Positions 1,044 through 36,885 of a stretch of DNA of 64,000 nt are shown one piece after another. This DNA comes from a virus (lineage: Duplodnaviria; Caudoviricetes): IMG/VR virus record IMGVR_UViG_2923088545_000001, positions 40 through 64,039 of that record. One strand, 5' to 3'. The translations under genes were made by a program, and so were the position numbers. The notes below the pieces were generated by a model. It saw only the letters and a list, made by a program, of their open reading frames with translations, did no database searches and had not been told where the DNA came from. How positions within the stretch are numbered: the first letter of the stretch is position 1; each line of letters opens with the position of its first letter.

Positions 1044-1078
1044 AATGTCCCGATTTTGATCGATCACATGCGACTGTA
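1044..1078 (+). promoter_or_regulatory. Conserved bipartite motif, copy 1 (candidate phage sigma/activator promoter)
   Basis: AATGTCCCGATT-N9-CACATGCGACTGTA, identical arms at 12579 and 27181. Confidence 0.75.
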
Positions 1079-9518: not shown

Positions 9519-10520
9519 ATGTCGATCATTACGATCAATGGCGTTCCTACGGACGTCGACATACGCGAAGAATTAGAGCGATTCGAATGGGATAGGCCGA
9601 CTTGGCATTCTGACCGTTTAACGGCGGCAAGTCCTTTTCGCGACGATCGGACTCCTAGTTTTTACGTTTACTACGAAGACACTTCGACCGCAAAAGCCGG
9701 CTATTTCGGAGACAGCGGCACAGGCGAACGTGGCGGCTTTATTAAATTACTTGCGTTCCTACGAGAAGAAACCGAGGGAGAGACGTCTTATTACCTCGCC
9801 GAGACTTATGGTACTGGTGAAGGTGAAACGCGCTTGAAACTCCGTGTTCCACGTTTGAAAATCGTTGAGCCTAGACGTCCATTAGCCGAGACTTTACTGG
9901 ACGGCGTCAAGATCGGCCCTAATGCTTACTTAACTAATCGCGGCATAAGCGAAGAAATCCAGCGCAAAGCAGGCGTAGGCATGGTCGGACAAACGGTAGT
10001 GATACCGTGGCGGTTGCCTAATAAGCGACTGGCAAACATAAAATACCGATCGACCCGTAATAAAGCTTTTTGGTACGCTAAAGGAGGCTGGCCTATACGC
10101 GAGTTAATTTACGGCATAGAAACCGTTTATGCGGATCGCGCCAAAGTAGCGGTTCTAGCCGAGGCTGAAATCGATGCGCTTTCGTGGCGTACGGCAGGCT
10201 TTTGCGGCATTGCGACAGGCGGCAGTAAATTTTCCGACCAAAAGGCGGACATAATTGCGCAGTCACCGATCGAATATTTAATAGTAGTATCTGACAACGA
10301 TGAAGCCGGTGAGAAATTGCGGAAGGAGGTCGAGCTAAAGATGCGCGGCAAAGTCAGGCTTGCGCACGGTTATATAACGAAAGGGTACAAAGATGCGAAT
10401 GAATTATGGATAGCGGAAGGTGAGGACGCTCTTAAGCGAGTTGTTGATCGTGCGGAGGCGGTAAGTATTAATGTAAGGTTCGGGAATATCCGAACTTTCG
10501 GTCGGCGGAGGTTGTCTTAA
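9519..10520 (+). CDS. DNA primase (TOPRIM)
   Basis: SPFRDDRTPSF N-domain; AEAEIDALS, VSDNDEAG, KDANE. Confidence 0.9.
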   Translation: MSIITINGVPTDVDIREELERFEWDRPTWHSDRLTAASPFRDDRTPSFYVYYEDTSTAKAGYFGDSGTGERGGFIKLLAFLREETEGETSYYLAETYGTGEGETRLKLRVPRLKIVEPRRPLAETLLDGVKIGPNAYLTNRGISEEIQRKAGVGMVGQTVVIPWRLPNKRLANIKYRSTRNKAFWYAKGGWPIRELIYGIETVYADRAKVAVLAEAEIDALSWRTAGFCGIATGGSKFSDQKADIIAQSPIEYLIVVSDNDEAGEKLRKEVELKMRGKVRLAHGYITKGYKDANELWIAEGEDALKRVVDRAEAVSINVRFGNIRTFGRRRLS

Positions 10521-10750
10521 CCCTCCGTGTTGCTACCGGATAAAGGACGCCAATTATATAAGGCTTCGACCGGGCAGTCGAGGCAGCGCGCAATAGAATA
10601 CGCCATTTCAACGTTAGGGACGTTTCTAAGCGCTATATAATCGGAAAGCTGCGTTTTTGAGATTCCGACCATTTCTGCGAGTTGTATAAGCGTATAACCG
10701 CGTTTATAACACAGCTCCTTTATCCGGCAATCGACGACCGAATACTGCGA
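10517..10750 (-). CDS. XRE-family HTH regulator with atypical or mutated start codon
   Basis: TLIQLAEMVGISKTQLSDY...CPVEALY HTH; TGTGGTATAAT promoter and GGAGGTG RBS point to a TCG codon at 10750. Confidence 0.7.
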   Translation of the reverse strand, partial: SQYSVVDCRIKELCYKRGYTLIQLAEMVGISKTQLSDYIALRNVPNVEMAYSIARCLDCPVEALYNWRPLSGSNTEG

Positions 10751-10824
10751 GATAAACACCTCCGCAAAGCAAAATGCGTGCTTTACGAAGGAAATTATAC
10801 CACATAACCGCGCTGATTCCATCG

Positions 10825-11043
10825 TCATTCGGGCGGATTTGGAAGAATACGGACAACCTTTTCGATAGGCACGTCCAATTCGAGGCAAATACGTTCTATT
10901 ACACGGAACTCTAGGTTAGCGCCGTTCATCGCAGGCTCTTTCGTAATTTTAGCCTGAGTAGACGACGACATAAAATTACGCAAATAACTTTTGGATTTAC
11001 CTTGCTCTTTCAAAGTGTCAAAGAGCGGAGAGAAATCAACCAA
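10825..11043 (-). CDS. Cro/CI-type HTH regulator (candidate repressor), divergent from aimR
   Basis: DFSPLFDTL...IERICLELDVPIEKVV; GGAGGTG RBS before TTG 11043. Confidence 0.75.
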   Translation of the reverse strand: MVDFSPLFDTLKEQGKSKSYLRNFMSSSTQAKITKEPAMNGANLEFRVIERICLELDVPIEKVVRILPNPPE

Positions 11044-11080
11044 TTCAGACACCTCCAATAATTTATGGAAAATATTAAAA

Positions 11081-11172: not shown

Positions 11173-12360
11173 TTGGAATCGATTAGACGAGAATTATGTA
11201 GTTTGATTGAAGATAGTGATTTGAAGTATAAAGAGATCGCAAAAATCATTCGAGCAGATAAATCAACCATGACACACTTCCGGAACAATGGGACAATTAG
11301 TTTTAGGTCACTTGTAATCCTCGCACATTTCCTATTTCCGAATAACTCCAATAAAAAAATTACCGAATGGTGTTTGTCGATTCAAAAGACTGATAATAAT
11401 GATTACTTAAAACAAATGATGGAGTACGCAGCAGTCACAAGGAATACAGATTTATTAACAGAACTAATCAATACTCATGCGAAGACTTTCGGTCTACAAG
11501 ATCATGTGCAGATTTACCGAACTATATTGAAGTATATCAATGCGGAAATTAGTATCGACAGTATGATAGAGGAAATGAGCTTCTTCTCAAAAAGTAGGCA
11601 TAAAGAATTGCGAATATTATCTTCTATTTATATGTGTTATGGTTATTATGGAAAAGGTGAAATTCATTCAATCCTAGACAAAGCACCTTCAATCGGCGAT
11701 AGCATCAAATCGCTAGGCGACAAAAAGAAACTTTTCATTAAAGAGTGCTACGTTCATCGCTATGCTGAGTTGATGTCGCCTGTATTCTTACGATTGAATA
11801 ATCTAAGTGCAGCAAAGCACTACGCAACCATAATAAAGAATGGAAACATCTCTAATAAATCAGTTTCTGACGCGAATTATATTTTAGGGATGATCGCGAT
11901 GTCGAAAGGTAAGCGGGACGCTATGTCTTTGTTCGAAGAGAGTTATAAATACGCTTATAAAACAGGTGTTGAATTCGTTATCACAAACGCAAAAAACAAC
12001 TTCCTTCTTGCCGAAGCGTATGTTAATAGGAAAGACTCGGATAAACTTTCGGCATTATTAGCTCAATTAAAGGAGGTGATATACGAAGAGAGAAAAGACG
12101 ACTTTTACATATACCTCGAAAAATATAAAACAGGTAGTGTCGAAGGGTTATTCGAATGCCATCGTCAATTCCTTTTCAATTCAGACTTTTTCTTTTCAGC
12201 GTTGGTAATGAGAGATTTCAAAGACGCTGGGGTACCTACGTACCTAATTGATACATTTTCAAACTACAACTACACGAAAAAGGGGATGCTTTATTTTGAA
12301 GAAGATTTTATTGAGTGTTTTATTGATTTCAGTAATCGCGGTGTCAACTGTACAGCTTAA
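11173..12360 (+). CDS. aimR: Arbitrium peptide receptor (HTH plus TPR, RRNPP family)
   Basis: 395 aa; N-terminal HTH, EWCL..., MEYA motif like SPbeta AimR; followed by a secreted pro-peptide gene. Confidence 0.85.
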   Translation: MESIRRELCSLIEDSDLKYKEIAKIIRADKSTMTHFRNNGTISFRSLVILAHFLFPNNSNKKITEWCLSIQKTDNNDYLKQMMEYAAVTRNTDLLTELINTHAKTFGLQDHVQIYRTILKYINAEISIDSMIEEMSFFSKSRHKELRILSSIYMCYGYYGKGEIHSILDKAPSIGDSIKSLGDKKKLFIKECYVHRYAELMSPVFLRLNNLSAAKHYATIIKNGNISNKSVSDANYILGMIAMSKGKRDAMSLFEESYKYAYKTGVEFVITNAKNNFLLAEAYVNRKDSDKLSALLAQLKEVIYEERKDDFYIYLEKYKTGSVEGLFECHRQFLFNSDFFFSALVMRDFKDAGVPTYLIDTFSNYNYTKKGMLYFEEDFIECFIDFSNRGVNCTA

Positions 12361-12430
12361 CAAAGGGACAGAAGGGGCGCTAGAAGCCGATCAACCTTAC
12401 AAAACAGCAGACATTCGACCAGGAGGATAA
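12296..12430 (+). CDS. aimP: Arbitrium pro-peptide, 44 aa, mature peptide probably (A)DIRPGG
   Basis: MKKILLSVLLISVIAVSTVQL signal peptide; acidic linker; ends KTADIRPGG*; AAGGGG RBS; overlaps aimR 3' end by 65 bp. Confidence 0.85.
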   Translation: MKKILLSVLLISVIAVSTVQLNKGTEGALEADQPYKTADIRPGG

Positions 12431-12431
12431 C

Positions 12432-12456
12432 GAGGCCATTAGGCTTCTTTTTTTTT
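12432..12456 (+). terminator. Terminator after aimP
   Basis: GAGGCC-ATTA-GGCTTC plus long T tract. Confidence 0.8.
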
Positions 12457-12578
12457 GTTTAAAAACGAACATAGTTTAAAATCAAAATGTTTATTTAGTT
12501 TTTCAACTTTCAAAAAATACATAGTTGTATTTGGTACTATATGGTCATGGAAGAAAAATTATAAAAAACTTTAAATCA

Positions 12579-12613
12579 AATGTCCCGATTCATACGGACC
12601 ACATGCGACTGTA
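12579..12613 (+). promoter_or_regulatory. Conserved bipartite motif, copy 2 (upstream of sigma-like gene)
   Basis: AATGTCCCGATT-CATACGGAC-CACATGCGACTGTA. Confidence 0.75.
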
Positions 12614-12642
12614 TAAGTGTAAGGGACGGGAGGAGAAAGAAC

Positions 12643-13173
12643 TTGGATAAACAAAAATTTAATAGGCTACAATTGGCCGCAGATTACGGAGCGATTCCGT
12701 ATGTACAAAGAGAATCGCAACGAATCGCACACTTAGTTCCCGACGAAACATCGTTCGAGCAGCGGACCTTACTTTCGATAGGCTACTGGCTGGAACGATA
12801 CGAAGGCAATGGTCGCGATAAGAAAGCGTTGATTCAGCGCATTATCGTAAGGGAACGGAATAAGTACTTGAAGCAAACGAAGAGAGAAGCGGCTTTATCT
12901 ATAGAAGGAATGCGAGACAACGGCAATGTCTCGTGGGAACCTCACGACAGTTTGGCGACTATCGATGACGGTTTGATGGCAAAAGAAAAGATCGCTCTGT
13001 TGGCGCAGAACGATCCAAGAAAAACAATGATCTTACAGTTTTGGAGCGAAGGATGTACGAATATGGACGAAATCTCCAAGTTGTTGGCGCAACATTTAGG
13101 AGGAAATTTCGAAGCACATCGCAAGTTCATCCGCCGTTTCCGTTTACACTGCCAGCGCGAACTAACAGCATAA
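12643..13173 (+). CDS. Sigma-factor-like transcription activator, 176 aa
   Basis: GGGAGG RBS, TTG start; helical N-domain (IQRIIVRERNKYLKQ) and region-4-like C-domain (RKTMILQFWSEG...MDEISKLL). Confidence 0.55.
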   Translation: MDKQKFNRLQLAADYGAIPYVQRESQRIAHLVPDETSFEQRTLLSIGYWLERYEGNGRDKKALIQRIIVRERNKYLKQTKREAALSIEGMRDNGNVSWEPHDSLATIDDGLMAKEKIALLAQNDPRKTMILQFWSEGCTNMDEISKLLAQHLGGNFEAHRKFIRRFRLHCQRELTA

Positions 13174-13307: not shown

Positions 13308-13451
13308 ATGAAACAACCTACAAACGATTTCCCACCCGTAGTAAACATCCAAAAATTAACGGAATTACAATACGAAGGCGCACTAAACCACGAAGATGAT
13401 CCGGCTGACTTTTATCGTCCTGCGACCATTAAGGCGGTGCGCGTCGGATGA
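13308..13451 (+). CDS. Small hypothetical protein (47 aa)
   Basis: AAGGAGG RBS; ATGA coupling to next gene. Confidence 0.6.
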   Translation: MKQPTNDFPPVVNIQKLTELQYEGALNHEDDPADFYRPATIKAVRVG

Positions 13452-13987
13452 AACAATACCGAGTATCTAAGCACGCAGAAGATCGCGCCGTTGAACGATT
13501 AGGGTACGAGAGATTTAACGCTAAATCACGACTACAGCAACTTATGCAATCGGCTGTGTATGTCGGTACCCAGCAAAATGATCGAGGACAGACTTGTGAA
13601 GTACGCGATCATATTAAATCACGCACTCGTATGTTGCTGGCCGGCGACTTAATCGTGACCGTCTACCCGATGTCCGACCCGTTAGATGCGATTCCATCGG
13701 AGTCATTGCCGGAAGAGCTTAAAGACGCAATTAAACGTAAATCAAATACGATCGTCAAAAACAAAAACCGTTCATTGCGCGCGCTTAAGATCGCAATCGC
13801 GGAGAAGAACCTAGATATTGCGCATTTAAAAGTCAATCTCGCTAAGGCTAAGGCGCCGAAAACGATCGATGCGATTAACGAGAAGCTCAGCGCTGAAGAA
13901 GTTGAGTACACAGCACTTAAGTCACGCGAAGAAAAACTGGAATCCGATATCAAGGCGATTTCTAAATTCGGTGATCTCTATGTTTGA
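13448..13987 (+). CDS. Hypothetical protein (SKHAEDR...R RelE/DUF4258-like N-terminus plus coiled coil)
   Basis: Motif pattern; operon position. Confidence 0.55.
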   Translation: MKQYRVSKHAEDRAVERLGYERFNAKSRLQQLMQSAVYVGTQQNDRGQTCEVRDHIKSRTRMLLAGDLIVTVYPMSDPLDAIPSESLPEELKDAIKRKSNTIVKNKNRSLRALKIAIAEKNLDIAHLKVNLAKAKAPKTIDAINEKLSAEEVEYTALKSREEKLESDIKAISKFGDLYV

Positions 13988-26207: not shown

Positions 26208-27182
26208 TTGACGACATTCACAGCGGCCAACTGGTCGCAATCAGACGATAATTTCACGGCCATGTTCTACGATCAGAACGTCAAGCAGTTTTGGCTACCG
26301 GAGGAGATTTCGCTAAATGGCGACCTCCTCGCGTGGCACGAACTGAAGCCAGCCGAACGCGATACGTATATGAAAGTGCTCGCCGGCCTCACGCTGCTAG
26401 ATACGGAGCAAGGCAATACCGGCATGCCTGCGATCATGGCGCACGTAGACGGTCACCAACGCAAGGCCGTCCTTAATTTCATGGCGATGATGGAGAACGC
26501 GGTGCACGCGAAGTCCTATTCGAATATCTTTTTAACGCTTGCGCCTTCGGAAACTATTACGGCCGTTTTCGAATGGGTTAAAGAAAACCGTTATTTGCAG
26601 CGCAAAGCGAAGCTGATCACCGACCTTTATCGCGGTATTAAGGAAGGCGACGACATTTCGTTGTACAAAGCGATGGTGGCTTCGGTGTACCTCGAAAGTT
26701 TCCTATTCTACAGCGGCTTTTACTATCCGTTGTATTTCTACGGGCAGGGGCGCATGATGCAGAGCGGCGAGATTATCGGGCTTATCATTCGCGATGAAGC
26801 GATCCACGGCGTCTATGTCGGCTTGCTTGCGCAGGAAATTTATAATCGTCAAACGGACGACGTGAAGGCGGATGTTCACGAATGGGCGGTCGGGTTACTA
26901 GCGGAGCTTTACGAGAACGAAGTCGCATATACGGACGATGTGTATGGCGCGGTCGGCTTGGCGCATGACGTTAAGTCGTTTGTTCGATACAACGCGAATA
27001 AGGCACTTATGAACCTCGGCTTTGAGGCGTATTTTCCGGATGAACCGGTCAATCCGATCGTGATTAACGGGCTAAGTACGAAGACGAAATCGCATGACTT
27101 CTTCTCAATGCAAGGGAACGGATATAAAAAGGCGACGGTCGAGGCACTTAAAGACGAAGATTTTTATTTTCCTGCCGATTAA
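26208..27182 (+). CDS. nrdF: Class Ib ribonucleotide reductase beta subunit
   Basis: [34 protein letters not shown]. Confidence 0.97.
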
Positions 27183-27215
27183 TGTCCCGATTTCCGGCGC
27201 CCACATGCGACTGTA
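27181..27215 (+). promoter_or_regulatory. Conserved bipartite motif, copy 3
   Basis: AATGTCCCGATT-TCCGGCGCC-CACATGCGACTGTA(TAAGTG). Confidence 0.75.
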
Positions 27216-27246
27216 TAAGTGAAAGCAAAACGAAGGAGCTGATCTT

Positions 27247-35949: not shown

Positions 35950-36885
35950 CGCTAAAACCGCCTTGACGCTTAGAGCCACGTGGGATACAGCCGTTTTTAG
36001 GTGTTAACGTTGTCTTATTCTTAGGGAAGACCTAGCGTCACTCCGTTCCGCAGATAACGCAATAGAATACATATAGAAGGACGGCGGCTTATTATTTGCG
36101 GTCGAGGCGGAGCCGAGGGCGCTGTACTTAAATACATACGGAAAGGATACCGTTAATAGGACGGAGATATAAACGTTAAGGACTGCGTAGATATACTTGT
36201 GTAACATACGGATATGCTGTCTTACGTTATAGAGAGACGTAACGCAACGTAACATACTAACGGCATGGTAACGATAATCAGACGGCGAGCAGCGTTTAGG
36301 GTACCGACATACAGGCGCTATGTAACGGCAGGCACAGACGGTCTATATAATATAGTACGAAGGCGGACGGTAGGGTGACGTGGATATACCGGAAAGGAAC
36401 TCCGCAATCAAGCAAGCGCCGCCCGCAGACGAGGCCACCGAAAACTCAGGGGGTTGAAAGCCGAAGCCAATCCGTTTATGCACGATCCTATACATGACGG
36501 CCGGCATAGGTAGCCCGCATGAATGGCGGCACGGCGGGGCTGGTACGATGCATAAAGTTCATTCGTTTAGTTGCGTAGGTCGAACGGCTACCAACCGCGA
36601 CACACCAACGTTTGTGATCAACGCGAATGTAACAGAAAGTCTTTTTGTTACTTTCGTTATGCAACGTTATGAGTGCGTTATTCAATAATGATCGCGAAAA
36701 ATAAACGAAAGCCGCCCGCCCCCAAGCGCCCCAGCCAAAACCGCCGGATCTGGTGAACAAAACTTGTGCACAATTTTTTAAACTCGGGGTGTTGATCGTC
36801 TGGTCCTACGTAGACGTACGTTAATCATCCGAAGTTTCTCGGAAGGGCTAGAGGGCTAATACGCTAATTAAACGGAGGGTCTGAC

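Follow-up and report, generated by a model that had tools for sequence, protein, structure and literature searches.

Arbitrium upstream of a candidate self-activating sigma factor in a temperate Bacillus phage

We analysed a 64,000-nucleotide (nt) stretch of viral DNA (the window), which covers nearly all of a provirus of 64,039 bp from IMG/VR, and concentrated on the gene that directly follows its arbitrium genes aimR and aimP. The 176-amino-acid (aa) product of this gene is, by computed fold and homology, a highly divergent two-domain factor of the sigma-70 family that resembles the extracytoplasmic function (ECF) group, and it probably recognises a motif that stands before its own gene and before two other early operons. 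We propose that the peptide receptor AimR primes the sigma gene, that the sigma factor then activates its own synthesis and that it opens three early operons, and we place the probability of this full chain at roughly 0.6. The proposal builds on four computed results: the layout of the locus, the fold and sequence kinship that tie the protein to sigma factors, the covariation of protein and motif, and the restriction of an extended -10 promoter to relatives that carry arbitrium. A preliminary description of the same DNA had suggested arbitrium wired to a self-activating sigma-like factor; this central reading was contradicted by none of the tests run and was supported by several.

Results

Phage and comparison sets

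The window belongs to a temperate Bacillus siphovirus of 64 kb. Its nearest isolate is the Bacillus australimaris phage vB_BauS_KLEB27-1 (KLEB27-1 below), with 88% DNA identity over the region of interest, and this cultured phage has the peptide, the candidate operator, the promoters and the sigma gene all as in the window. A tyrosine integrase gene comes first, followed by rightward operons for replication, the switch region, DNA polymerase with ribonucleotide reductase, nucleotide metabolism and structural genes. Loci were compared in a set of 32 close loci (20 bearing arbitrium and 12 without it), covariation of residues with bases was scored in 37 related loci, and distal motif copies were compared in six whole phages only. 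The GC baseline was 47.1% over the window. An Rfam scan of the whole window returned no known RNA family.

A two-block motif precedes three rightward operons

The motif consists of block 1, ATGTCCCGATT, a free spacer of 9 nt, and block 2, CACATGCGACTGTA (11 + N9 + 14, 34 nt in total). Exactly three perfect copies are present in the window, at 1045, 12580 and 27182, all on the plus strand and each 30–75 nt ahead of the first gene in a rightward operon. The chance expectation for the motif is 0, with no match in 100 shuffles when 3 mismatches were permitted. The copies and the sigma gene are as follows.

1045-1078, plus strand: P1, motif copy 1, an exact match directly 3' of the integrase terminator and lacking the 120-bp gap found before P2
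12580-12619, plus strand: P2, motif copy 2 (34-nt motif at 12580-12613), with block 1 ATGTCCCGATT, a 9-nt spacer, block 2 CACATGCGACTGTA and then TAAGTG
27182-27221, plus strand: P3, motif copy 3, which begins at the TAA stop of the upstream open reading frame (ORF; 26208-27182)
12643-13173, plus strand: sigma gene, 176 aa, with a TTG start behind a strong ribosome-binding site, GGGAGGAG (12628-12635)

According to PHROGs, the P1 operon (from 1154) encodes a DNA-binding protein, a methyltransferase, a DnaC-like loader, a DnaB helicase and a primase. The P2 operon holds the sigma gene, two conserved ORFs, DNA polymerase I and ribonucleotide reductase, and the P3 operon holds a small membrane protein, dUTPase and ThyX. 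The P2 copy lies 30 nt upstream of the sigma gene, and the element is kept there in relatives whose protein is down to 35% identical. At the start of the late block (packaging and structural genes; 36760-36880) there is no motif copy, and the stretch contains TGTTGATCGTC...CGTACGTTAAT.

The motif occupies the matching three places in related phages, and the position homologous to P1 is filled in G001, G002, G003, G004, G005 and KLEB27-1. The copies agree with each other within each phage, and block 2 differs between phages, reading CACATGCGACTGTA in the window and CCTACCCGTTATA, ACTACGTGTTATA or GGGGTTrTA elsewhere; KLEB27-1 has the window version three times. Agreement within a phage together with difference between phages leads us to expect a specificity factor encoded by the phage itself. 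The preliminary description had named co-occurrence of motif and gene across phages as a check on its proposal, and the motif does recur ahead of the sigma gene and at sites equivalent to P1 and P3.

If block 1 is taken as the -35 element, standard geometry would put the -10 element on TGCGAC and the start within the family-wide TATAAGTG. A CGAC core is found in some Bacillus ECF promoters. Two other interpretations of the element were rejected: an RNA structure, as there is no pairing between the blocks and nothing constrains the spacer, and a leftward sigma-A-like promoter toward aimP, GGGACA-N17-TATAAT (12558-12586, minus strand), which overlaps block 1 at P2 and is missing from P1 and P3. 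The latter probably arose by chance from the A/T-rich tract upstream, and an antisense transcript from it is improbable.

The 176-aa protein has a predicted sigma fold

The protein is laid out as a sigma-2-like domain (residues 1-85), a flexible linker (86-111) and a sigma-4-like domain (112-176), with K161 and H169 in the last helix. A longer frame of 197 aa from the ATG at 12580 was rejected as the gene, as this ATG belongs to the motif; close homologues are mostly 175-176 aa long and start at the TTG/GTG position. At 50% identity the family falls into ~177 clusters, with members that are almost all 170-200 aa long.

AlphaFold2 models reached a confidence (pLDDT) of 77 with 26 sequences and 89 with 112 sequences, and both show a pair of helical domains with a flexible stretch of ~25 residues between them. 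When compared with 48,161 PDB chains by VIA-align, residues 12-81 superposed on domain 2 of Taq sigma-A (3ugo) with a Z score of 8.4 and a root-mean-square deviation (rmsd) of 2.2 Å over 67 residues, and also on 4x8k, 1sig and pro-sigK (8vjl); the first model gave the same result. Whole sigma factors matched across both domains (for example sigB, 8x6g, Z 8.2, 165 residues aligned), and residues 108-176 matched region 4 of sigE on -35 DNA (2h27, Z 5.7), region 4 of SigA (6ono) and SigK (4nqw). The eight best VIA-align matches were sigma factors with one exception, an epitope scaffold whose alignment covers the same stretch of residues as that of Taq sigma-A domain 2, and the 11 top Foldseek matches were all sigma factors.

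Profile methods pointed the same way. An alignment of 112 family members matched eight Bacillus ECF sigma factors in hhalign (79% probability, E 1.6e-5) over 158 collinear columns, and a PDB search with the wide family profile returned SigW and AlgU weakly (E 0.04-0.07); with the 26 close homologues, the same kind of search gave weak unrelated matches only. Run against 91 Bacillaceae genomes, the family profile found, after its own members, weaker matches of which four of the five inspected carry Pfam Sigma70_r2/r4 and look like sigK, sigH and ECF sigma factors. Language-model neighbours were viral 'sigma factor' clusters with PF04542 (score 0.96). PHROGs assigns the protein to a family of unknown function, and GenBank lists its KLEB27-1 homologue, gp51, as a sigma factor of RNA polymerase. 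The two halves of the protein had been noted at the outset as resembling sigma regions 2 and 4, and structure prediction, profile, genome-profile and language-model searches agree with that. Overall, we consider it very probable that this is a sigma-family protein which binds the element upstream of its gene, and likely that it is a true sigma factor, one that would bind the RNA polymerase core.

Protein residues covary with the motif

The residue aligned with K161 covaried with base 4 of the TGT[C/T]nCA heptamer that precedes the gene: lysine or arginine was paired with C in 27 of 27 loci, and isoleucine or valine with T in 10 of 10. Isoleucine at this position goes with TGTTGCA and valine with TGTTACA, and His169 accompanies TGTCCC. 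Eight of the covariation cases had been selected by residue from the protein alignment and their DNA was retrieved afterwards. A maximum-likelihood tree required at least 5 label changes, at least 4 of them forced by well-supported branches, and the pairing is therefore a repeated co-change rather than a single inherited state. The last helix is the recognition helix in the helix-turn-helix (HTH) of sigma region 4.

Block 2 follows the N-terminal domain. The loci L035 and L025, one with arbitrium and the other with cI/ImmA, have N-domains that are 74% identical and the same block 2, as do L031 and L007, with N-domains that are 85% identical. Promoter copies 11–14 kb away, including the distal P1, likewise follow the N-domain, and the motif does not track the HTH repressor genes. 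Because of the covariation at the K161 position in 37 of 37 loci and the tracking of block 2 by the N-domain, it is probably the 176-aa protein itself that reads the motif, the copy ahead of the sigma gene included, which is what the preliminary description had assumed of it. A readable code, in which K or R at position 161 would go with C, I with TG, V with TA and His169 with C, is a part of the broader reading of the switch given below to which we assign even odds.

The halves of the sigma gene are shuffled between phages: L025 and L022 are 96% identical in the C-domain and 65% in the N-domain, and L035 and L007 are 90% and 63% identical, respectively, with recombination within the linker region.

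A predicted arbitrium-specific promoter leads into the sigma gene

The features between aimR and P2 are as follows.

11173-12360, plus strand: aimR, 395 aa (Pfam AimR PF22871, 64.7 bits against a cut-off of 26.7; phrog_1728, E 1.7e-50)
12296-12430, plus strand: aimP, 44 aa by translation, with a hydrophobic N-terminus, the end KTADIRPGG and a 65-nt overlap with the 3' end of aimR
12432-12459, plus strand: intrinsic terminator of aimP, GAGGCC-ATTA-GGCTTC followed by T9 (6-pair stem, loop of 4)
12473-12508, plus strand: candidate AimR operator, AGTTTAAA-N20-TTTCAACT (core AGTT-N28-AACT), centred 44 bp before the -10 hexamer
12532-12540, plus strand: extended -10 promoter TGGTACTAT, without a -35 hexamer, predicted start near 12547

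In 20 of the 32 close loci no other ORF separates aimP from the sigma gene, which also comes first after aimR-aimP in four of six species-representative Bacillus genomes that carry the family. Across the arbitrium loci AimR ranges from 25 to 92% identity and the peptide types vary. In one of them (L009) the sigma factor is 97% identical and P2 is identical, and AimR is just 27% identical; this pattern indicates that the cassette has been exchanged as a unit, which the low GC content of aimR fits.

DNA from the aimP terminator to ~12535 is specific to the AimR type, and beyond ~12535 it is common to all arbitrium loci. TGnTAnnAT was present within 230 nt upstream of the sigma gene in 20 of 20 arbitrium loci, compared to none of the 12 loci without arbitrium. 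Each arbitrium locus has a single occurrence, which lies 110–123 nt ahead of the sigma start in 19 cases and 50 nt ahead of it in the remaining one (L017). The extended -10 promoter is thus distributed with arbitrium, and to judge from this sequence pattern it is probably the arbitrium output promoter. In L017 (4828-4937; sigma factor 65% identical, peptide VPKPGG) the sigma-type promoter is missing and the extended -10 stands alone, 50 nt before the start codon; by its sequence this locus is a natural variant without the feedback promoter.

The candidate operator of the window is kept in L010 and KLEB27-1. More widely, the best long-spaced inverted repeat was centred 44–45 bp before the -10 hexamer in 9 of 10 loci and in five of six AimR types, with half-sites that differ between types (AAGTTG-N26-CAACTT; TTTTCGGA-N22-TCCAAAAA; AATTGGGT-N22-ACCCAATT; TTTACA-N24-TGTAAA). 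The distance from the candidate repeat to the terminator varies over 5–17 nt. A geometry that is fixed relative to the promoter and variable relative to the terminator suggests classical activation over antitermination, and either mode would send transcripts into the sigma gene. Control of the sigma gene by AimR is, in our estimate, likely; the binding of AimR to the repeat, its mode as activator or antiterminator, and the transcription start sites are predicted from the layout.

Relatives without arbitrium have other candidate inputs to the same sigma gene

In relatives without arbitrium, a cI-like repressor gene and an ImmA-type protease gene diverge from the sigma gene, and a consensus sigma-A promoter, TTGACA-N17-TAtACT, lies ~250 nt upstream and reads toward it. 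In distant relatives (those of 35–38% identity and metagenomic ones), a small HTH_26 gene alone diverges from the sigma gene. As the cI/ImmA promoter leads into the same sigma gene, the layout of a priming promoter followed by the gene's own promoter is conserved and the input module changes. TGT(C/T)nCA is retained before the sigma gene in all cI/ImmA and distant HTH_26 relatives, and the conserved core of the switch therefore consists of a sigma gene with its own promoter and a small repressor gene opposite it, with arbitrium one of several inputs placed between the two.

The cI/ImmA promoter (TAtACT/TAAACT) is overlapped by short palindromes, such as ATCTTAC...GTAAGAT-like ones (L031, 7700-7760; L097, 1150-1200; L025, 7690-7740), and in these three relatives a structured leader of ~200 nt comes before the sigma promoter.

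Cassette, gap and flanking genes

The gap after the terminator (12460-12579) is exactly 120 bp long with 20% GC, and aimR has 35.5% GC. Every element of the layout first described for this region, from the aimP terminator through the AT-rich gap and motif copy 2 to the 176-aa ORF, lies where it had been placed. That description had also pointed to a repeat of ACATAGTT and a palindrome in the gap. Both are present, the repeat at 12469 and 12519 and AAATAC-N6-GTATTT at 12515-12532, but neither is conserved in L010, L011 and KLEB27-1, whose AimR is 92% identical. They are thus probably not functional sites, and were dropped as candidate AimR sites because relatives with the same AimR type lack them.

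No conserved ORF, such as aimX, was found between aimP and the sigma gene in the window or its relatives. A 39-aa frame (12455-12574) was rejected as AimX, since it has no ribosome-binding site (RBS), is not conserved and lacks its start codon in L010, and a 41-aa frame in the gap was rejected for want of an RBS and of conservation. Nor does the window have a convergent HTH gene of the aimC/aimL type 3' of aimP, a comparison that did not extend to the sroDEF neighbours of SPbeta. The AimP counterparts in 20 relatives end in xxxxGG, with secretion and processing predicted from sequence, and the peptide types among relatives are DIRPGG, ELRPGG, EIKVGG, AIKVGG, GIKVGG and VPKPGG. The integrase terminator (1001-1037) resembles the aimP terminator (12423-12459), with 70% identity over 37 nt and a common GGCCATTAGG core.

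The genes that flank the cassette and the sigma gene are as follows.

10517-10888, minus strand: HTH-A, an XRE-family HTH gene divergent from aimR, candidate lysogeny regulator (Pfam HTH_3, E 1.5e-10)
10825-11058, minus strand: HTH-B, a small HTH gene of 77 aa, its counterparts recognised by PF13443 HTH_26 matches
13308-13451, plus strand: conserved ORF of 47 aa (phrog_30530)
13448-13987, plus strand: conserved ORF of 179 aa (phrog_5083)

HTH-A is retained upstream of aimR in every arbitrium-type relative, and it tracks the phage backbone instead of the AimR/AimP type. The HTH-B variant does track that type, 'VDFSPL...' occurring with RPGG peptides and 'MISYEPLR...' with IKVGG (window, L009, L012, L024 and L035), and in distant relatives without arbitrium it is the HTH-B counterpart that faces the sigma gene divergently. 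HTH-B may be a functional part of the arbitrium cassette, an AimC-like repressor. A pair of ORFs (~47-56 aa and ~160-196 aa) trails the sigma gene in most relatives with readable downstream DNA, to ~30% identity, and the two are candidates for a sigma cofactor or anti-sigma.

Discussion

Proposed mechanism and alternatives

We propose that the arbitrium cassette is an insert of low GC content which separates the small HTH repressor genes from the sigma gene, and that it would supply the first sigma transcripts. AimR free of peptide would bind the repeat at 12473-12508, just 3' of the aimP terminator, and would switch on, or allow read-through to, the extended -10 sigma-A promoter at 12532-12540, from which transcription would run across P2 into the sigma gene. 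The sigma-4-like C-terminal helix of the product would read block 1 (TGTCCCGA) and its sigma-2-like N-terminal domain block 2, so that the factor would act at P1, P2 and P3 as an early master activator and, because P2 precedes the sigma gene, would amplify its own synthesis. We infer from this a feedback loop that would bear on the choice between lysis and lysogeny: as DIRPGG-type peptide builds up, AimR would be released, the sigma gene would stay unprimed and the lysogenic route would follow. A broader version, in which AimR acts as an activator ~56 bp before the start to prime a self-locking ECF-like sigma factor that opens two more early operons, the sigma gene with its small divergent HTH partner is the ancestral switch for an entire lineage of phages, and arbitrium cassettes that differ in peptide specificity or a cI/ImmA module are interchangeable inputs, is in our estimate evenly balanced between right and wrong.

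Several observations weigh against the proposed chain. The Pfam scan of the window protein gave no sigma family at E up to 1, and among 112 relatives there was one weak match each to Sigma70_r2 and Sigma70_ECF; the Foldseek E-values were all above 0.1, and VIA-align Z scores of 7–8.4 are in a range that unrelated helical proteins can reach. The -10 register is ambiguous, with the family-wide TATAAG 31 nt from the start of block 1, too far for standard sigma-70 geometry, so that transcription could begin before or after it. P2 adjoins the coding region of the N-domain, and some of their co-variation is possibly linkage, against which the distal copies argue. The operator was picked post hoc in AT-rich DNA where inverted repeats abound, the AimR type of L023 breaks the 44-bp rule, and activation by AimR would be a departure from the antitermination of phi3T and SPbeta. 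Finally, the late structural genes of the window (~37 kb onward) have no motif copy; the sigma factor alone therefore cannot run the whole lytic programme and would launch replication.

The missing Pfam match in particular leaves room for a different view of the protein, as a sigma-like activator that binds the motif and recruits host sigma-A RNA polymerase to a TATAAG -10, as proposed for sigma-4-like late activators of Gram-positive phages. The conserved TATAAG/TATATA does resemble a sigma-A -10 and lies 23 nt past block 1, which would put block 1 near -40, a typical activator position, and six family members weakly match HTH_16. However, the N-domain fits the core-binding, -10-reading domain 2 of sigma factors at an rmsd of 2.2 Å, the profile is collinear with whole ECF sigma factors, and binding by an HTH alone leaves unexplained why the phage-specific block 2 tracks the N-domain; we consider this view improbable. 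We regard as highly improbable that the motif is a phage repressor operator or a host alternative sigma promoter and that the protein merely sits behind one copy. In SPbeta, elements that recur at early promoters are known to be repressor sites (SPBRE; PMC10516654), and the motif varies between phages as immunity regions do, but its blocks are unrelated in sequence, are neither direct nor inverted repeats and enclose a free spacer. Moreover, L035 and L025 share block 2 with unrelated repressor systems, L024 and L035 have the same HTH genes and differ in it, a residue of the 176-aa protein itself varies together with block 1, and a host sigma factor would not yield phage-specific -10 blocks.

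A sigma regulon that is real without being the arbitrium output is also unlikely, although it keeps more weight with us than the two preceding alternatives. The extended -10 would then be constitutive or repressor-controlled, AimR would act elsewhere (on the divergent HTH genes or host sites), and the adjacency would reflect insertion at a permissive spot. This would suit the 12 close relatives and all the distant ones, which use the same sigma switch without arbitrium, the variation of HTH-B along with AimR type, the candidate status of the operator at this locus and the further genome sites bound by SPbeta AimR (PMC6458997). It is opposed by the AimR site directly 3' of aimP in every studied system, by the travel of the extended -10 with the cassette (20/20 vs 0/12), by the type-specific repeat fixed 44–45 bp from the promoter in five of six AimR types and by an interval between aimP and the sigma gene that holds no other ORF or conserved element; L017, where the extended -10 is the sole promoter before the sigma gene, also argues against it.

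Comparison with known systems

In SPbeta and phi3T, AimR operators consist of 6-bp inverted boxes 25 bp apart (PMC6458997), and AimR works by antitermination: it has no promoter of its own, and its distance to the terminator matters (PMC10769878). The window shares with these phages a Pfam-grade AimR, an overlapping small AimP, and a terminator followed by a long-spaced inverted repeat, in the window a candidate operator, with the proposed output element directly after it. It differs in having an extended -10 at a fixed distance from the candidate operator, in the end of the peptide (PGG vs RGA), and in its output, which is a 51-aa AimX peptide or small RNA acting on MazEF in SPbeta/phi3T and a 176-aa sigma-family protein with a candidate autoregulatory promoter here.

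A survey of ~9,300 AimR loci recognised SPbeta-like (~4%), extended aimX-aimC-aimL (~75%) and unexplained 'generic RP' classes, and 'sigma' is absent from its main text (bioRxiv 10.1101/2025.11.23.689978). The window locus would fall in the 'generic RP architecture' of that survey. Like the extended systems (phi106, Wbeta and Waukesha92), it has short HTH proteins without a cleavage domain by the cassette and early replication genes downstream, but those systems have aimX with convergent aimC and aimL, whereas the window lacks these downstream of aimP and has its small HTH genes upstream, divergent from aimR.

Our literature search found no paper that links arbitrium to a sigma factor, in line with the preliminary description, whose author knew of no peptide-gated sigma regulon; the name sigma had already been given to the KLEB27-1 homologue in GenBank. 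The known designs of the arbitrium decision are AimX acting on MazEF (phi3T) and AimX as an antirepressor of AimC (extended systems). If our proposal is true, a receptor that feeds a sigma factor that feeds its own promoter would be a third, simple design, one that would account for part of the 'generic' class and make the decision bistable. The ~177 clusters of phage sigma-like proteins are invisible to Pfam, and the residue-base covariation predicts which promoter each would read; such a set is rare material for studies of sigma specificity and for orthogonal expression parts.

Positive autoregulation is familiar from the group 4 ECF sigma factors SigW, SigM and SigX of Bacillus. The window protein shares with Bacillus ECF factors a length of ~175 aa with sigma-2 and sigma-4 parts, a bipartite promoter with a CG-containing block ~23 nt after the first (CGAC in the window) and a copy of this promoter before its own gene. 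It differs in lying below Pfam thresholds, in having no recognisable anti-sigma gene and in a -35 of TGTCnCA, unlike the AAC type, and its family is phage-encoded and, as proposed here, receives its priming from a peptide receptor or from a switch of the cI type.

Phage sigma cascades, such as those of SPO1 gp28 and gp33/34 and of T4 gp55, redirect host polymerase to phage promoters. A phage-encoded sigma factor that steers host polymerase to phage-specific promoters is likewise what we predict in the window. Other phage sigma factors alter sporulation (PMC9429907, PMC2716549). The SPO1 and T4 factors time the programmes of lytic phages and the sporulation ones act on host genes in lysogens, whereas the sigma factor of the window stands at the lysis-lysogeny switch of a temperate phage, where we propose that it is self-amplifying and gated by a peptide.

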